Both the position numbers and the translations under genes were made by a program. DNA of 64,000 bases, counting the filler, from Basidiobolus ranarum (lineage: Eukaryota), in the NCBI GenBank assembly GCA_040143965.1. It is 16 parts of 16 records of this genome, joined end to end, with 100 filler letters (N's around TTAATTAATTAA, not from the genome) between each part and the next. Parts side by side here need not be neighbours in the genome. Positions count along the whole stretch, not along the records: positions 40,213 to 44,123 come from JASJQH010009095.1; 15 more parts are not named here. One strand, given 5' to 3'. A model generated the notes under the pieces. That model worked only from the letters and a program-made list of their open reading frames with translations. It searched no databases and was not told where the DNA came from. Positions 3,928-60,444 of this stretch are shown here, one piece after another (position 1 is the first letter of the stretch; each line of letters starts with the position of its first letter).

Positions 3928-4027
3928 NNNNNNNNNNNNNNNNNNNNNNNNNNNNNNNNNNNNNNNNNNNNTTAATTAATTAANNNNNNNNNNNNNNNNN
4001 NNNNNNNNNNNNNNNNNNNNNNNNNNN
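3928..4027. other. Artificial contig linker (N-run + TTAATTAATTAA + N-run); recurs 15 times, about every 4 kb
   Basis: Same 100-nt layout at 3928, 7955, 11981, 16005, 20028, 24051, 28073, 32088, 36102, 40113, 44124, 48134, 52143, 56149 and 60154. TTAATTAATTAA gives stops in all six frames. Confidence 0.98.
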
Positions 4028-5811: not shown

Positions 5812-8056
5812 GTGATACCTTAGTTCAATATGGAATAACTACATACTAAACTCGTCCGACACTCCCCGAACTTTCGTACACACTTGGTAAATTTGCAGGA
5901 CAGTAGTTGACTTCGTATTGAGCGCTAGCGTATGTGTACTACAGCGATTCTCTTGAGCGCATTCGTATTTAAATAGCACCATAAATGATAAAAACTCCAA
6001 GATCACAGATAAAAATATTGGTAATAATTAGAAAAATCGAGTGAACTTCAAAAAGACAGTCAGTCAGTAGTATTAAAAATCCATACACAAGTTCGCCGCG
6101 GGTACAGCTTAAATTGCGATATCGCGTAGCCAATCATATATCAGTAAATATGTATCCACTGGTAAACGGTCTCTTTAGATTAGCAGGATGTTTTGGTGTA
6201 AACTTGAACTCGTATCATATACTCAGGAAATTCTCTCATCGGCTAATGGTTTGTAGGTAAAAAAGAAGCATAGCCTAGATGGGGTAATCTCCCAAGGAAT
6301 CAATAATGACGCTCGATGCCTTTCAACTCCAAATTGTAGAGTACAATATCTAGATGTCATTCCCTAGAAATCAGGCACAAAAGGGATAAAAGAAAACCTT
6401 TAAATCAGCCTAAAATGAGGACCCATCCGAAGTTTGGTTATCTGGAATGCTTAGTATGTAGTATTGCTAATCAACAACTTCCTTAAGTGATTTTTTTAGA
6501 TCAGGCGAGCTAGGCAGAAAGGTTTATCCAAGTGAAGCATGAGGATACTTTAAGAGACCTGGATGCTTCTGTTTGAATCTTTATTTGGGCCCAGTTGCAA
6601 AAACCCACACGATCGCTATTTGTGAATAGAAGGCGTGAGCATACGCTTTTGGATATTTCAAGAAAATATTCGATGGATATGTATGAGGCGTGCAAAGAGC
6701 TGTAGAACATTAAAAACCCACTGTAATGTTGGTTGAGATAGATGGATAGAAATGATTTTCTGATGCCTTGCTGCTTAAATCTCATCATTGAAGGTATCAC
6801 GAAGGCAACTGAAACTGCCAACATCCATGGGATATTTCAATACGTGCCACTTTCCGTTATTGTTGCAGTTGGAATGTCTCATTAATCTCAAAACAGCGAT
6901 CTAGATTGGATAGTCAAGTACAAAGACTACTCACCCTCTAGTATTGGCTAAGCAGTTTCTCAACCCGAGATCATTGATCCTAGGTAGTTTGGTGCATTCC
7001 AATTTTGTGAATACAATATTAATGGCTACACACAGAATAGTTCCATATCTCAAATGTACAATAGCCCGGAAAAGTCTAACAAGATGATTAATCTTTGCTT
7101 GATCTCAACGGAAAGAGTTAGTAAACAAAGCATCAACAATGATGCAGCTCCATTTTTACTTCATTGCATTGCGCGCCTAATAGGCCCAATAAAATCCAAC
7201 TATTTGCCAGTATCATTATAGCTAAGGGGATTGAAAATCCAAAAATAACTTCAGTGGTGCAAACTCCTTTTTTGCATTCTCAGTAGCCCATAAATGAAAA
7301 TACAACTTGAAGCAAAGTAAAGTATGCCAATACGAAACATCCATAAATAGTCATTGAAGGTGATTTTAACACTATCGGGCTGGGTTATGGAGCTTACTGA
7401 CTCGTCCGCCAACTACATTCCGCTTATCTTGTGGGGCAGATGGTAGAGATCTTCCGGTAACTCGAGTATACTACCAAAAACAGCCTTATCTGAGCATTTG
7501 GCGCCGAAGTGCTGCACTTTGCCGGCCTATGATTTGTACCAACTGCTAAATAAATGCGCAATCGACGATAAGAGATACATGTGCTCCATGGCTACTCGAC
7601 CCCGCTTTGAGATCTCAATGCTACGGACGTCACATTATAGGGCTTAATTCAATATCTATTTCCTTGAATGGCAAATGGCTTGCAGCTGGCGTTTTAACGT
7701 GATCAGAAGCAGCAGCCCTATACTCAGGGTTGTCCAGGGGCCTAAAGTATCTCGGTAATAGAGTGCGTGTTCTGATTTGGATCGCATATGATATATATCT
7801 CAGCTCATTGCAAACTGCCTGGAAGAGGTGGAGTCTAGTGGTGATTGAGGATATGTTATAGTTAGCCACTCCCAATCGATCGTAATGCGATATCTAGTTA
7901 TTAATGTGAAACCCCATAGAGTCTATCTAAATTATAGCCATACTAATTTCAAAGNNNNNNNNNNNNNNNNNNNNNNNNNNNNNNNNNNNNNNNNNNNNTT
8001 AATTAATTAANNNNNNNNNNNNNNNNNNNNNNNNNNNNNNNNNNNNNNNNNNNNAA

Positions 8057-40212: not shown

Positions 40213-40312
40213 CCCTTTGCCACCCCATATCCCAAACCCTCACCCTCACCCTACCCCAACCCCATCCCCTAACCCTAAAACAAACCCTAAACCTAACCCT
40301 AACCCTAACCCT
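40213..40312 (+). repeat. Degenerate (CCCTAA)n telomere-like tract
   Basis: CCCTCA/CCCTAC/CCCCAA variants grading into perfect CCCTAA units, then GGGTT. Confidence 0.75.
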
Positions 40313-41450
40313 AAGGGTTGCATCTGCCAAACCCCCCTTTTTATATCCTTACCCTGACCAGAATATTCATACCCAGGGTGCTCTTTGCTAGTGTTGTAGA
40401 GCCAGCACAACAATACATAAACATTATGTAGGTAATAAGAAAGGTTCTGGGAAAAGTGTTCTCTAGCAATATGCTGACTTACTAGAATTAACATATTCCT
40501 GACCCCCCTTGACCAATCAAATTCTCTGATTCTTCCCTCTTATTGAAAGAGTAACATAGGCTAAAAGGTAATACAAGTAGTAGGAAAAGGGCACTCTTAC
40601 CAGAACCAGTGTAACCCTAACCCATTTTGGCCAATCAAATTGATAGCTTTTGCAATCCCATCTTGACACATCATATTGTTAAGATATTAGGTTCTTGACA
40701 AAAGAGCAATATGGCATAAGTGGTAGTTTTCACTTCAGAGAAACTATATACTATTAGTTTATTGTTTACTTCAGACAAACTCAAGAGTTAGATATTTTAA
40801 GTAGCAGATTAAGTAGCTCCTAATGGCTTCTTTGCATGAGTTGATTTTTCATATAAATAAAGACTACACCCTCATGGTGTATGTTTGACCCCCGTAACAT
40901 TACTTCTATTGAAGATGTTATGCTTGCATCTTTATACTACCATTTACCAATACCATTAGAACTGTTTGCAACTGGAAAATGTAGAAGATACCACCACTAT
41001 TATACAGTCAAGGCAAGTATTTTAGAGAATGAAAATAATAATTTTAGGGAAACTTCATTGTGAAATGCTTATATGCTGTTGCTAATATATGGTGCTTTCG
41101 ATTTTATTTCAGAAAGATACTTCGGTGAAATTCTTTAGTGTATCATAGTTCTCTTCCATAGCTAACTAGTCTAGAATTGTATTTTCCCCCTCTATTCCTC
41201 TATTTCTCTTATTTTAGTGATGAGGCCAGATCCAAGCTGGAGTGATTGCTAACTTGCCACTTCATATTCTCCAGTTTCTATCTTGTTCAAATTATGCTTC
41301 TTCATGGTAGATGCTTTTAGGTTGTTGGCATATGAGGTAGGTTGTGTACTGTAACGAACGAAGCTATTTTCAGCAAGAATTTTAACCCTTAAGTTTATTA
41401 ATACTATAATTCAGAAGCAAGGGATATGTAGTTCACGTATAAGTATGTTG

Positions 41451-44123
41451 CTAGCAGTTCTTTGCTTTGCGGTCGGGTAGTTGCTTGGGTGGTAGATCGA
41501 TATATTTGCTGTCTCGTTTTCGCTTATTTGGATTAGTTCGGACATATACAGGCTTACCAGTAGGATTGTTTTGGAGCGAGTATGTGACTCGTGGACGATT
41601 GATTAATCCAGTAGTAGTTATTCCCAGAGCTGTATAAACTTTGGTCGCGGTTCGTAGCCGCTGCAAATTCTAATCAACCATTTGGTTAAAATGGGGAATT
41701 GTATGTGAATATGCTGACAGAAAATATAGCTTAAGAATACTTACACTTGATGCTGAATTGAATTTCTTTCTTTCTTCTTCAATAATATTGACTTGGCCTA
41801 ATTTAAGGGAAAGATATTGTGATTGTTAGCTCAGCGATTTGGTTGTTATTTTGCAGGTTGAAGAAAAGCTAGTCGAACCCTAAATATACTTACGCAAATT
41901 ATATTGAGATTCCAACTTCTTGAAGTTCGTACTGCTATAAATATCATTCAGAATTTTTTGTATATTGGAAGCAGTTTTTTGCCGACTTGCGGATATACTG
42001 TCCATGTAACTCTCTACAAATAAAGAAATAATTAGTTGAAGTGGACGACAACGAGGAGGAACCAAGGTGAACAATAATAACAGGAAATTTTAATCAAAAC
42101 GTACCAGTCAAACTGAACACCTCCGGGTTCAGTCGATTCGCAGACACTTTTGGACTTGAATCTTTATAATCTCCTTTTATCAGTGAGCCTTTGAATGAAT
42201 TAACTGAAGCATCGGATCCAAACATATTGTCACCATGATTTAGTGTTTTCGTAATTTTATCGTTCCATTCTTTGCTCCAAAATGCATCGCAAAATTTCTG
42301 AGAATGGTATTGAGTTAGAGGTACTGTTTGTCGGTTAAAAATCAAAAGTGCTTACGTTCAACTCTTTTTTGCTAAGCTGAGTTCCAAGTATATTTCTTAA
42401 AGTGCTCAATAGTTCTTGCGCTTCATATGCATGATCACATTGAGGTCCATAGAAGTACTTATACCTTTGATCCGTATTAGTAAAATCTGTCATTTCAGCG
42501 AAGCTCAACTGTGAAGCAGCAGTATCTTGTAGGCCATCGATTAGAGCTGGAGGAAAGCTAATTTTACTAATCGAATTTTTACAGTGATCTTCATAATTAT
42601 GCCCTTTCATGTCATCAGCCTTTCCCATTGTCCATGGACACTGGCTATATGGAAGTCCTCTCGCTGTTAAAGAGACCGAAGTGTAGCCAAGTGAACTTGG
42701 ATTCGGTGAATTAGAAGCGTTGGAGAGCATTCCTGGAAGTGCCATTGTCACCAAGCCTGTACTTACAATTTTAGGAATGACCCAGCTATCTAATCCAATA
42801 GAAACGCCTTCTTCCACTGCTTCTGAAGCTAAGCATTTCATAATGGTAGTATCGAGCTTACTGGCAACTGCATTCTTGGCTTTGGTAACCCCGTTCCGAA
42901 CCCATGGAGGCATTAAAGTTTTAAGTCCACTTGCAATTGCTTTGATATCATCGATAGAGGCAATTCCTTTAGCAAAGGCCTTCTCAAATGCGGAAGATTC
43001 AGCCAAGTATGCACCACCGCGAGCGACTCTAGCTGCCTTCAGGGCTCCACTGATACCACGTGCCGCCAGTGTAATTCCTCTGGCTACGCCACCAAGGATG
43101 GGGCCAATAGCGAAACTTAGTAGAGTGATACCAATGTCAATAAGTAGACTGGTCATTGCCTCTCTAGCAGCTTTTTCCTGTGCTTCCTTGTCCAAAGCTT
43201 CGGCCAGTGCATAAATGTAATTATTCGCCATTTCTAGTGTATGATTTCCACTGACTACGGAAGAAATGGCTACGTTAGCCATTCTTGCTACATCCTCCAA
43301 TGGAACATCATCAGAGAAAGCGTAGAACTCCATTTCTTTAATTTGAAGAATAGCAGATGCTACATATTCTTGAATAGGTTGTGAGGGGTGCACAAATATT
43401 TTATCGGTCGCCTTTAGAACACCGTGCCTAGCAATATTGAAGTTTAGATCTTAACACAAAAAAGACGGAGAATATCAATGGAAAAAAGATTTACCAGTCA
43501 GTTTCAATACAACTTGGATCAGGTTTAAAGGGGTCATCTTCGGATCTTTTGGCAATTCGCGGGGCAGAAGTGGAGAGAGAAGTCACCCCATTCGCGAGTG
43601 TTAGATTAGACTCACTACGGGAAGCGAATGGAATGGGATTGTAGCATCCACCTGAGAACAAAATCAACCATGAAGTGTAGTCATGGATAGAATAAGAATA
43701 AGGAATCATATCTTGGAGTTACTCAGTATTAAACCCTCCTACCACTCATTGGATAGCTTGCAGTCGCTCGATCCAAGTCAGCAAGATTGACACCCAGCAT
43801 CTCTAACAAAAACGATTCGAACCCTTGGGTATCCACCAAGTTCCAGTAAATATCATATTCACCTTGAGGACTTTTGAATGATGTTGGACAGTTATCGGGA
43901 GATTCTTCTGGCTTTAGAGTGGATCTGGAGAACAATTAGTCAGTAAAGAAATGGAGGAAATCTACCAGAATTATTAGCAAAACTCATTCCATTACATACT
44001 TGCATGACCAATATTTTCTTCCCTCTCCTATCATGTGTGCGTGAAACTTCAATTAATGAAGAAATAATTAGCTTTCATTGAAACGTTTGATCGGAACCTA
44101 AATAGATTATAGTGAAGGCTGCA
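41451..44123 (-). CDS. 5'-truncated multi-exon protein resembling the C-terminal region of killer-toxin-like (subgroup C GH18) chitinases, ending in a putative HNH-like toxin domain
   Basis: GT-AG exons splice into EGRKYWSCK|STLKP..NCP..YDIYWNLVDTQGFESFLLEMLGV..|GCYNP..AKRSEDD..C..W|..HPSQPIQ..hydrophobic hairpin..CDHAYEAQ..|KFC..LNHGDNMFGSDASVNSFKG..|..|RQVNII..|..PNKRKRDSK..RKAKNC*. Phases checked by hand for the first and the last four junctions. Confidence 0.75.
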
Positions 44124-44223: not shown

Positions 44224-46671
44224 CCAGGTGGGGTTCCTGCTTGTGATATTGTTGATGCGCCAGCGCCTCCACCAGCAGAGGTAGGCGGTTGTGAGCTATT
44301 ACCCGAGAGAAGATCATTACTGGCCTTTGGAGTCGTGAATGTTGATGAGTCAGGTTGGTAATGATGGTATTTGATTCCCTGTGTCAACTGATTGGCTCCA
44401 AGAAGTTGTTGATTGTTGAAATCCACCATGTTTTGGGTGTTTACTCCAGAAATATTTTGGGAATAAATTTGAAGGGAACGAGACATTTCATGACTTTTGA
44501 CATGCTTTCGCAAAGATCTAGAATGATAATAGGCTTTTCCGCAACCAGGAACAGGACACAAATATGGTCTGACATTGGAGTGGGTTTTGACATGTGTAGC
44601 TAAAGAATCAGGTCTTGAGAACCTCTTACCACAATCTATATAGATTTGACAAACATATGTTAGAATTCATTTGTGTAATGAAATGAGCTGAGATCAATTG
44701 AAAGTACCGGCTACAGGGCATTGGAACGGTCTTTCACCAGTATGGGTTCTTAGATGATTATACATCTTATGGCGTTTGGTAAATGGCTTCTGATTACGTG
44801 GGCAGCCTTGCCACTCACATTTGTAAGATGCCTACAAATTACAAACAAGGCGATTAGACCGTGAAAATAGGAACGTAATGGACCGATAATGTAACTTTAC
44901 CTTGCCACTCCCAATATGCTCCTGGCCAATATGGGAAATTAGAACATCTAGTGCTGGGAAAGATTTAGAGCAATCGTTCCAAAGACAATCAAATATTTGC
45001 GGTTTTTCGAATTTCTCGTCGTCTTTGTCACCCTTGATATCATCTTCATCGTCAAGCTCCTCGTCCTCTTCATCTTCCTCGGCGAGTTTTTCTTCATATG
45101 CGTGCGTGATTGAAATGTCGGCCCCCGTAGGACTCAAAGAGTCGGCTATGACAGCTAAAAAAATAGATTTGATGAGTAAACATCAGGTAATGGTTACAAC
45201 AATAACAGAACCTACGTTCATCGCCTTGTTCAGATGAAGTTTCACCACAAGGGCTAGTCGTGAAGTCAGCCATCAAATTGGGAGACTTGGTAGGAGAGTG
45301 TTTGGTCTTTGCCAATTCGTTCTCAACATTTCGAAGTCTTTTAATCAACTCCTCGCGAGTCAAATTATCAAGAGATTTCAACTTTTGCTTATCCGGTAGG
45401 TCATCTACAGAGCCGGACTTGTAAGGGAAGGTGTGTCCTCTATACTTGAAATCTTGAACAGGGTTGATTATGCTGTTACTATTAGGTCTCAATACACCGT
45501 ATCCATCCGCAGTGTACTCGAGTATCTTTAGAGGCTTCTGTTCTGGATCACCTTGAGAGTGTAAAGTCAATGCTTCTATCTGCTCAGGAGTAAGTCCATG
45601 CAGATCATTAGGCGATACCTGATTCATAGGGGACATTTGCATATATCCACGTTGCCTCAACATTTGTCCTTCAGTAGTTTGTCTGAGCAGCTGCTTCTCC
45701 GGGCTCCGGGGATATCCTGAATATTTTAATTCGGGAGCTGAGTATTGCCTACGATGACCCATTTTTTTGCGCATTGCGTGCAACATTTGGCTATTTTCAA
45801 CCATTTGCTTTTGAAAAGAAGGGGGAATTCGCTCAGATGGCATTGGTTGCATAAAGTGTGGGTTGGGAGTTGGCTTTAGATTGCTCATGCAATATTGCGA
45901 CCCAGAAGGTCTGGATTGATTCGGAGGAGTAAACATTGACACTGATTTACTATATCCATGACGAAGATGAGCTGGTCTATTGGAACGAACAGAGTGTTTT
46001 CGAGGTACCTGAGATAGGCACATGTCGAAATTCATCATATTGTTGTTAGCAAAGACATTGGGCATGTGCGCATTAGAAGGCATAGAAGGAACACTCCGAG
46101 GAGGATCGAGAGGCAAGTTATCCGGTCCTAGCATATTTTGAGAGTTTGAAATAGCATTTTGTGTATTTGTACTTGTAAGCATATTCTCAAAAAATTGCTG
46201 TTCATTTGAGATAGGATTCATCATGTTATTGGTCATAATCAAGTTGGAACCCTCAGTATGAAAGCCGCCATGGGACGAGAGGTGCATCATAGAGGATACT
46301 ACATGCTCTTGAGGAGATAGACCACCACTTGGTGTTGACTCGCCCGAATTAATTAAATTCTCTAGATTGTTGTCGTGAATAATAACTTTAGACTGAGTCA
46401 TCAACTCGTGTGAAGGTAGAGTGGGTGTATCAATTAACATCAAGCCTTGTGGGAGCACATTCGAACCAGACAGAAGCTCGGTATACTGTTGCTGGGAAGC
46501 TAACTGCTGGTTGAGAAAGGCTTGGTTGATTGCATCCTGGGACATATTCGGGAACATGTTGCCTGTGGTTGAGTTGCTCTGCATCTCTCTAGTAGAATAG
46601 TCGATAGAAAGGCCAGTAGGAGTGGAATTATTTGAGATTATGGAAGAGGAGTGGTCTTGAGTAAGTTGCAT
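44224..46671 (-). CDS. C2H2 zinc-finger transcription factor with GLI/Zic-like tandem CWCH2 fingers; 3' end truncated
   Basis: Long Q/N/S/M/P-rich N-terminus, coiled coil, acidic tract; fingers CLWNDC..HIGQEH, CEWQGC..FTKRHKMYNHLRTHTGERPF, CPVA.CGKRFSRPDSLATHVKTH, CPVPGCGKAYYHSRSLRKHVKSH. Confidence 0.9.
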
Positions 46672-60153: not shown

Positions 60154-60444
60154 NNNNNNNNNNNNNNNNNNNNNNNNNNNNNNNNNNNNNNNNNNNNTTA
60201 ATTAATTAANNNNNNNNNNNNNNNNNNNNNNNNNNNNNNNNNNNNNNNNNNNNATGAGATAGCTGTAGGAGTTTGTGTGACGAGCTTATTAATAATGGCG
60301 CTAACAATGAAGGATGGGAAACCTGATGAATTTAGAAAGTAACCGAGTTAGCTAACAAGAAGATTTCGAATGAAGGCAGTAAGGAAAAGAAAGGAACGAA
60401 GAAGTATACCATGAAATCATGAAAATAGGTCAGACTCTTGTAAG

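Follow-up and report, generated by a model that had tools for sequence, protein, structure and literature searches.

A subtelomeric gene of Basidiobolus ranarum that probably encodes the tail of a killer-toxin-like chitinase precursor and carries a conserved, candidate nuclease domain

Among the cases in which a fungus delivers an enzyme into a different fungus, zymocin-type toxins are the best understood. Here we compare with them a gene of Basidiobolus ranarum, K7432_015681, whose coding sequence lies on the minus strand at 41451..44034 of a 64,000-nucleotide stretch of DNA (the window). The toxins are described in five sources (PMC13556262, PMC13348850, 10.1101/2024.10.25.620242, PMC13442484 and PMC11848437), and the following account draws on excerpts of these. 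The alpha and beta subunits of zymocin are cleavage products of one GH18 chitinase precursor, and the zymocin chitinase and the gamma toxin each carry a terminal Cys (10.1101/2024.10.25.620242). The same source labels a transmembrane segment among the domains in the legend of its chitinase cartoon (Figure 4), describes nuclear, intron-bearing chitinase copies in Pezizomycotina, flags some chitinase clusters as potentially subtelomeric and places some C-II chitinases outside toxin clusters. Pezizomycotina chitinases are modular and include, for example, Hce2 fusions (PMC13556262; 10.1101/2024.10.25.620242). The gamma toxins of ascomycetes are 225-366 amino acids long (PMC13348850). C-II chitinases are also encoded on plasmids of Zoopagomycota and Mucoromycota (PMC13556262; PMC13348850). 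On most of these plasmids there is no identifiable gamma-toxin gene, and Heneghan and Wolfe speculate that a different class of toxin is delivered (PMC13556262). The name Basidiobolus has 0 occurrences in the main text of the 2026 Genome Biology and Evolution paper (PMC13348850), and a literature search on Basidiobolus, chitinase and killer toxin returned nothing related. No killer-toxin-like chitinase is described from this lineage in the literature searched.

Taken as a whole, the data suggest that K7432_015681 is probably the tail of a killer-toxin-like chitinase precursor that is secreted and has the zymocin alpha/beta architecture, encoded by a nuclear, intron-bearing and subtelomeric gene. 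The order on the contig is a Cys-containing domain, a linker with a KR pair, a helical beta-like part with a Gly-Pro-kinked segment, a domain of ~150 amino acids and a basic tail that ends in Cys. The contig would hold the 3' two-thirds of the gene, and the part encoding GH18 and the signal peptide would lie beyond the contig edge.

The link to chitinases comes from the relatives of the protein. An exhaustive phmmer search of a library of 1.84 billion representatives, with the large exon (residues 126-483) as the query, returned five proteins at E <= 1e-3, namely the K7432_015681 product itself (P0001) and four relatives. The relatives are a partial paralogue in B. ranarum (P0002, E 1e-28), an 1803-residue 'GH18 domain-containing protein' of Hypsizygus marmoreus (P0003, E 8.5e-6), a 635-residue protein of Rhizoctonia solani (P0004, E 1e-5) and an 836-residue protein of the chytrid Phlyctochytrium arcticum (P0005, E 6.6e-4). 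By these E-values the similarity is beyond chance, for the paralogue and for the proteins of other phyla (E 8.5e-6 to 6.6e-4) alike. The distribution is patchy (five clusters over three phyla). Half of the conserved C-terminal domain described below (the C-domain) was included in the query, which lowers the score of any relative that ends differently, so that such a relative could have been missed.

P0003 has a full GH18 domain (residues 691-1000, 121.9 bits) directly upstream of a module of the type seen in the window. In P0002 the same place is taken by the last 75 residues of a GH18 domain (at 7-81). As GH18 precedes the same module in both homologues, there is support for the view, first put forward in an initial annotation of the window from the sequence alone, that the region is a C-terminal extension belonging to a protein of the GH18 chitinase type. 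The G.KYW.C / CP / W.L.D..GF pattern on which that annotation relied aligns to P0002 (36 of 70 residues identical) and to P0003 (18 of 69). There is a hydrophobic, signal-like segment at residues 2-20 of P0003. The part of P0003 ahead of GH18 (residues 1-690) gave no Pfam match at E <= 10 and could represent a carbohydrate-active or beta-helix domain that has escaped recognition.

Other searches added no relatives. Pfam searches of six exon pieces and of P0001-P0005 gave nothing except GH18, and NCBIfam and PADLOC gave noise only on the protein. Word-index protein searches, including one with profile A1, found P0001 itself only, and PDB sequence searches with P0001 and profile A1 gave noise. 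There was no tblastn match of P0001 to plasmids. In metagenome contigs profile A3 gave 145 pattern matches, none of them confirmed, and in viral contigs P0001 gave 13, again with none confirmed. Profile A1 had 0 matches in 401 Pseudomonadota genomes.

The protein is assembled from eight exons on the minus strand, located by a splice search and confirmed by tblastn of P0001 and by the protein record: 44034-44000, 43924-43743, 43651-43495, 43427-42356, 42297-42105, 42013-41894, 41797-41745 and 41669-41451, the last ending in a TAG stop codon at 41451-41453. All seven introns are of the GT-AG type and 58-96 nucleotides long; they were read by eye and then recovered by the splice-search script. 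The spliced product matches exactly the 676-residue NCBI entry 'hypothetical protein K7432_015681 [Basidiobolus ranarum]', so the short minus-strand open reading frames do join into one long protein, as had been proposed. It was seen on a single 3911-base contig.

The contig edge almost certainly truncates the 5' end of the gene, as judged from comparison with the paralogue. The annotated Met-Ile-Gly start of P0001 is internal in P0002 (QLMIGDGRQFWSCK). Local tblastn similarity to P0002 reaches 44049, five codons beyond the annotated ATG. Frame translation and paralogue alignment of the region upstream of the ATG (44035..44123, minus strand) point to four further codons of exon 1 at 44046-44035, preceded by a candidate AG acceptor at 44048-44047 (its exact position being our estimate) and an intron; an in-frame TAA stop lies at 44055-44053. 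The contig ends at 44123, 89 nucleotides from the annotated ATG. The internal Met, the upstream similarity, the in-frame stop and the contig end together argue for truncation and support the earlier proposal that the N-terminus lies beyond the contig.

The anatomy of the module was derived from an alignment of P0001-P0005 (A1) together with motif and hydropathy scans. Residues 1-70 (43750..44034, minus strand, exons 1-2) form a Cys-containing domain, which in the relatives comes after GH18. Its pattern is G.GR.YW.C...CPT...Y..W.L...GF....E.LG, and its identity is 51% to P0002 and 26% to P0003. The string EGRKYWSC...CP...YDIYWNLVDTQGFESFLLEMLGV, noted at the outset, is at residues 4-56 of P0001.

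A poorly conserved linker leads to the dibasic pair K107-R108 (RIAKR/SEDDPF, the slash marking the possible cut; 43545..43550, minus strand), a candidate Kex2-type site. The KR pair is aligned ahead of DP[FY]..DP.C in P0001, P0002 and P0003 and is close by in P0005; there is none in P0004 (4/5). By analogy with zymocin, cleavage here would split an alpha-like part from a beta-like part. The conserved start of the beta-like part is DPFKPDPSC at residues 112-120 (43509..43535, minus strand), in which P113 and C120 are invariant in all five proteins, and helices are predicted after DP[FY]..DP.C.

Residues 216-262 (43016..43156, minus strand) comprise a hydrophobic segment with a central Gly-Pro (LLIDIGITLLSFAIGPILGG) and then a Gly/Ala/Arg-rich stretch, with F230, P234 and R258 invariant in the region. 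Residues 219-237 (LLIDIGITLLSFAIGPILG) have a Kyte-Doolittle value of 2.02, and the segment is the top-scoring 19-mer in all five proteins (1.88-2.28). From its sequence, this region is a candidate membrane-insertion element. The Gly/Ala hydrophobic segment LLIDIGITLLSFAIGPILGGVARGITLAARG, placed by the initial annotation at ~43050-43155, is indeed within this region (43156-43016). The same annotation described a hydrophobic hairpin; the first arm (residues 219-237) is strongly hydrophobic and is the sole such 19-residue stretch, but the second 'arm' is Gly/Ala/Arg-rich, so that a hairpin is plausible. In P0005 the helical and hydrophobic region (378-481) gave a noise-level NCBIfam match (E 1.9) to alpha-xenorhabdolysin family binary toxin subunit A. 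Alpha-xenorhabdolysin belongs to a family of alpha-pore-forming toxins, and the match is at most a hint at the mode of action of the membrane segment.

Helices and a Ser/Asn/Pro linker separate the hydrophobic region from the C-domain; the linker and a C-terminal domain after it had both been noted before, and both are present in P0001, the domain being Cys-containing. In this interval (A1 columns ~672-680) there is a second dibasic site in three of the four proteins compared: K1496-R1497 (AAKR) in P0003, R299-R300 (LARR) in P0004 and R527-R528 (VLRR) in P0005. Such a site would be consistent with the C-domain being released as its own subunit in the species of P0003, P0004 and P0005.

The C-domain itself occupies residues 386-530 (42154..42646, minus strand), spans the junction of exons 4 and 5 and contains C388, C407, C455 and C485. 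Two motifs stand out in the A1 alignment. The first is Q454-C455-D456-H457 (42431..42442, minus strand), with a putative catalytic DH dyad, followed by E460 and E463; this CDH..E..E motif is invariant in all four proteins that reach the domain. The second, also found by motif scan, is N502...N506-M507...N515..K518 (42190..42240, minus strand), and its spacing, N-x3-N-[LM]-x7-N-x2-K, is identical in the same four. The protein ends in a basic tail (residues 640-676; 41454..41564, minus strand) that includes NKRKRD and has Cys676 as its last residue. In the four proteins that reach the C-terminus, the last 60 residues contain 13-18 Lys+Arg, and a Cys is found 1, 5, 14 and 8 residues from the end.

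It had been proposed that the protein ends in an unrelated, swappable toxin tip, with a conserved N-terminal and middle region and divergent C-termini expected among relatives. The alignment does not show this pattern. The six pairwise identities in the C-domain are 23-33%, in comparison with 16-39% before the hydrophobic segment (109-215), 14-28% after it (263-385) and 15-27% in the tail (531-676), placing the C-domain among the best-conserved regions. As all four family members that extend that far share one C-domain, with the same motif and conserved like or above most of the presumed delivery part, an exchangeable tip is unsupported in this sample. The initial annotation had also named homologues that always share the same non-toxic C-terminus as evidence against itself. 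The same C-terminus is what we find, and toxicity is the other half of that statement.

What might the C-domain do? Tox-DHNNK, a clade of the HNH/EndoVII type, has as its defining signature 'DH, N, N, N, K' (PMC3482391, Table 2, and PMC3113570, each in excerpt), and Zhang et al. record Tox-DHNNK in ascomycete and basidiomycete fungi (PMC3482391, in the same excerpt). There is no DHNNK entry in one text supplement of PMC3482391. The invariant residues D456-H457, N502, N506, N515 and K518 are those of the published DH-NNK signature, in the same order. This is suggestive of a candidate His-Me finger nuclease (HNH, DH-NNK/DUF1524-like).

Likeness to DH-NNK was judged by the published signature and likeness to DUF1524 by profile comparison. 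The reference for the latter was the PF07510 domain (GmrSD_C/DUF1524) from bacterial genomes, of which 32 were translated (one locus of an unpublished genome was left out): 25 of a secreted actinobacterial type (QIDHVVALSDAWQKGA...FANDPLNLLAVDG..N..KGD) and seven of the GmrSD type. With the four-sequence alignment of the C-domain as the hhalign query, N..dNM.......N..K falls exactly on ANDPLNLLAVDG..N..KG of the 25 actinobacterial domains, and in relaxed hhalign only, CQCDH aligns with VQIDH of DUF1524, collinear with the first match. The order of residues (DH, then N-x3-N-[LM]-x7-N-x2-K) is the same in both, and the last four are spaced as in the 25 domains. The two differ in that the insert between DH and the N motif is 44 residues in P0001 and ~25 in DUF1524, in that CDH..E..E of P0001 stands where DUF1524 has DHVV.LS.AW, and in that the similarity of P0001 is below significance with no Pfam match. 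When three other regions of the family were compared with DUF1524 they scored 7.1-10.8, and the C-domain, at 16.2, was the only region near threshold.

Searches of a protein atlas gave leads only. With residues 405-600, the feature search returned unnamed clusters at 0.93, GmrSD_C at 0.89 and GH-E at 0.85, and the structure search, using the atlas's own model, returned GmrSD_C/HNH clusters at TM 0.41-0.45. The top matches of the whole protein (0.76-0.79) are at a noise level often reached by shuffled proteins. The clusters scoring 0.93 are 226-residue bacterial ones auto-named 'Chitin-binding protein' and a 139-residue basidiomycete one; the bacterial look-alikes are leads only, as profile A1 found no match in the 401 Pseudomonadota genomes. 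The structure search with residues 405-600 also returned an unnamed 236-residue ascomycete cluster (TM 0.65/0.56). Other enzymatic readings of CDH..E..E were considered by eye, and neither a deaminase (HxE...PCxxC) nor PD-(D/E)xK nor HEPN fits in spacing and partner motifs.

Several results weigh against the nuclease step. The hhalign score against the 25 actinobacterial domains is 15.8-16.2 (P 0.077-0.1, probability 0.6-0.8%), and the P value is 0.071 against all 32 PF07510 domains. Column shuffles scored as high in 10 of 200 cases, the reversed alignment reaching 9.5, and there was no match to the seven GmrSD-type domains (P 0.97). None of the nuclease families of Pfam, NCBIfam and PADLOC matched at E <= 10. 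AlphaFold2 models from five-sequence alignments were too poor to use, with a mean predicted local distance difference test score of 37.0 for P0001 and 33.5 for P0004. The second dibasic site is a gap in P0001. In the same hhalign test two genuine PF07510 subgroups reach a score of just 22.9 (P 0.005), so the test has little power. As it stands, the nuclease reading is made up of an exact motif match and weak leads and is below significant homology.

If the locus is the tail of a zymocin-type precursor, the following sequence of events would apply. The precursor would be secreted and cut after KR, the chitinase part, with its GH18 domain off the contig, would attach to the chitin of a competing fungus, the hydrophobic segment would insert into the target membrane, and a toxic moiety would be carried across. 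The moiety could be encoded in cis. In that tentative version the C-domain and tail (~290 amino acids) would be the equivalent of gamma, an HNH-type DNase with a tail resembling a nuclear localization signal and tethered through Cys; ~290 amino acids falls in the published gamma-toxin range. In favour of the cis version are the invariant catalytic-type residues and the dibasic site before the domain in three of four proteins; the absence of that site from P0001 weakens the case. The terminal Cys fits cis and trans equally, since the zymocin chitinase and the gamma toxin both carry one. We consider the cis version slightly more likely than a separately encoded gamma-like toxin on the terminal Cys.

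An extension of the cis version can be put forward as speculation, and we hold it doubtful. The proteins would form an ancient family of single-polypeptide 'fungal colicins' in Basidiobolus, a chytrid and two basidiomycetes, in which a killer-type chitinase scaffold for wall docking, Kex2 cleavage and membrane insertion carries its own DH-N-N-N-K HNH-type DNase. Such a protein might amount to an alpha-beta-gamma fusion in which a cis-encoded DNase replaces the separately encoded tRNase of zymocin. Nuclease colicins such as colicin E9 and bacterial polymorphic toxins of the Rhs/CdiA type, which act against close competitors, combine in one polypeptide receptor or wall binding, membrane translocation and a nuclease at the C-terminus. 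The arrangement suggested for P0001 would share this domain logic, by analogy. In contrast with colicins and polymorphic toxins, the setting of P0001 would be eukaryotic secretion with Kex2-type processing, and there is no sequence relationship. In contrast with bacterial polymorphic toxins, the tips in the P0001 family are the same in 4/4 and no immunity gene was seen on the P0001 contig.

The position of the gene was examined along its contig. A telomere-type array of 14 degenerate CCCTAA copies (77% matches) was found by Tandem Repeats Finder at 40231..40314 on the plus strand. The CCCTAA pattern has three overlapping matches at the array, none elsewhere in the window and none in 100 shuffles. 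The stop codon of K7432_015681 is ~1.14 kb from the array. The array opens the contig, and the toxin-like gene is the one nearest to the chromosome end.

Set beside the zymocin alpha/beta precursor, which is the pGKL1 chitinase or 'chitin-binding protein' of Kluyveromyces lactis, and beside C-II chitinases, the locus is alike in having GH18 upstream of the module (in the relatives P0002 and P0003), in the dibasic K107-R108 between the alpha-like and beta-like parts, in the hydrophobic segment (5/5 family proteins) and in the Cys near the C-terminus (4/4). Like the nuclear C-II copies of Pezizomycotina, the P0001 gene has introns and is subtelomeric. It differs in that the part after KR is 568 amino acids long and has an extra conserved domain with catalytic-type residues, in that P0003 has no LysM match and in that no gamma-toxin or immunity gene is visible on the P0001 contig.

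Some of our findings count against a killer-toxin-like chitinase precursor. There is no GH18 domain, signal peptide or chitin-binding module on the locus contig or on the other 15 contigs of the window. The GH18 match in P0002 (27.3 bits) is under the Pfam cut-off of 29.6, because only the end of the domain is present, and P0003 has no LysM or CBM18 match in Pfam at E <= 10. The phmmer search with residues 126-483 brought up no canonical ascomycete C-II chitinase at E <= 1e-3, so the likeness to zymocin beta is one of shared architecture. In the 1.1 kb from the stop codon to the telomeric array there is no gamma-toxin-like or immunity gene and no convincing open reading frame visible.

Of the other explanations, the one that survives best is that the protein is a delivery subunit only. 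The part from KR to the C-terminus would then be a large, non-enzymatic beta-type subunit, joined by a disulfide at Cys676 to a separate gamma-like toxin. The near-terminal Cys conserved in 4/4 proteins and the lack of significant nuclease homology are consistent with this. However, 568 amino acids follow KR and include invariant D, H, E, E, N, N, N and K of the kind typical of an active site, no small-reading-frame partner is visible on the contig, and on most non-Dikarya chitinase plasmids no gamma-toxin gene was found (PMC13556262, in the excerpt covered). We regard this explanation as possible but on the unlikely side.

It is less probable still, in our view, that the protein is not a weapon at all. 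It could be a GH18 chitinase with a role in nutrition or wall remodelling, anchored or regulated in the producer's own membrane or wall by its C-terminal extension. The one strongly hydrophobic segment could simply hold the protein in a membrane, neither a toxin nor an immunity partner was seen on the contig, and the C-II chitinases outside toxin clusters (10.1101/2024.10.25.620242, in excerpt) provide a precedent. An anchor leaves too much unexplained, however: the KR site, a 150-residue catalytic-type domain past the segment, the basic Cys tail, the subtelomeric site and the patchy spread over three phyla.

The 676-residue protein might instead be complete, that is, a stand-alone, non-secreted, membrane-associated protein that merely shares a module with chitinases. 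NCBI annotates the ATG at 44034, and P0004 and P0005 are annotated without GH18. Against this, Met-Ile-Gly is internal in P0002, similarity extends upstream to the candidate acceptor and the contig ends 89 nucleotides upstream. In addition, P0005 starts exactly at the expected GH18 end and P0004 starts mid-module, so that both look like truncated models. This explanation is very improbable. Least probable of all, by a little, is the polymorphic-type toxin of the initial annotation, in which a conserved chitinase/translocation cassette carries interchangeable, unrelated C-terminal tips: the whole-protein atlas search does list GH-E, AHH, LHH and Ntox15 (at the 0.76-0.79 that shuffled proteins often reach) and Pezizomycotina chitinases are modular in the excerpts covered, as in the Hce2 fusions, but 4/4 proteins share the C-domain at an identity (23-33%) not below that of the rest of the protein, and the 1.84 billion representatives yielded no relative with another tip to a query that, including half of the C-domain, was biased against one.

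Read as the tail of a killer-toxin-like chitinase precursor, the locus adds a nuclear, intron-bearing, telomere-adjacent copy of a killer-type chitinase in Basidiobolus, a lineage absent from the main text of PMC13348850. It also belongs to a small family spanning three phyla whose members have, after the carrier, a conserved domain with an active-site signature of the nuclease type. If the domain is a DNase, toxin and carrier would be in one gene and the system would be easy to test. Fungal killer chitinases would then be connected with HNH toxin domains for which Zhang et al. listed a transfer to fungi but no delivery context was known, and the cis DNase would be the 'different category of toxin' about which Heneghan and Wolfe speculated for non-Dikarya chitinases. 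Should the domain prove inert, the locus simply adds one more member, new and fragmentary, to the killer-toxin-like chitinases.

The window consists of 16 contigs of ~3.9 kb from B. ranarum, joined through N44-TTAATTAATTAA-N44 linkers (gaps at 3928-4027, 7955-8054, ... 60154-60253), and its G+C content is 37.5%. The locus contig is 40213-44123, with its right end at a linker gap. As the window is made of joined separate contigs, those that flank 40213-44123 are not genomic neighbours. On the next contig, at 44224-45182 on the minus strand, there are open reading frames that encode repeated C2H2 zinc fingers (CGKRFSRPDSLATHVKTHSNVRPYLCPVPGCGKAYYHSRSLRKHVKSH) as well as an acidic stretch; they belong to an unrelated, transcription-factor-like gene.

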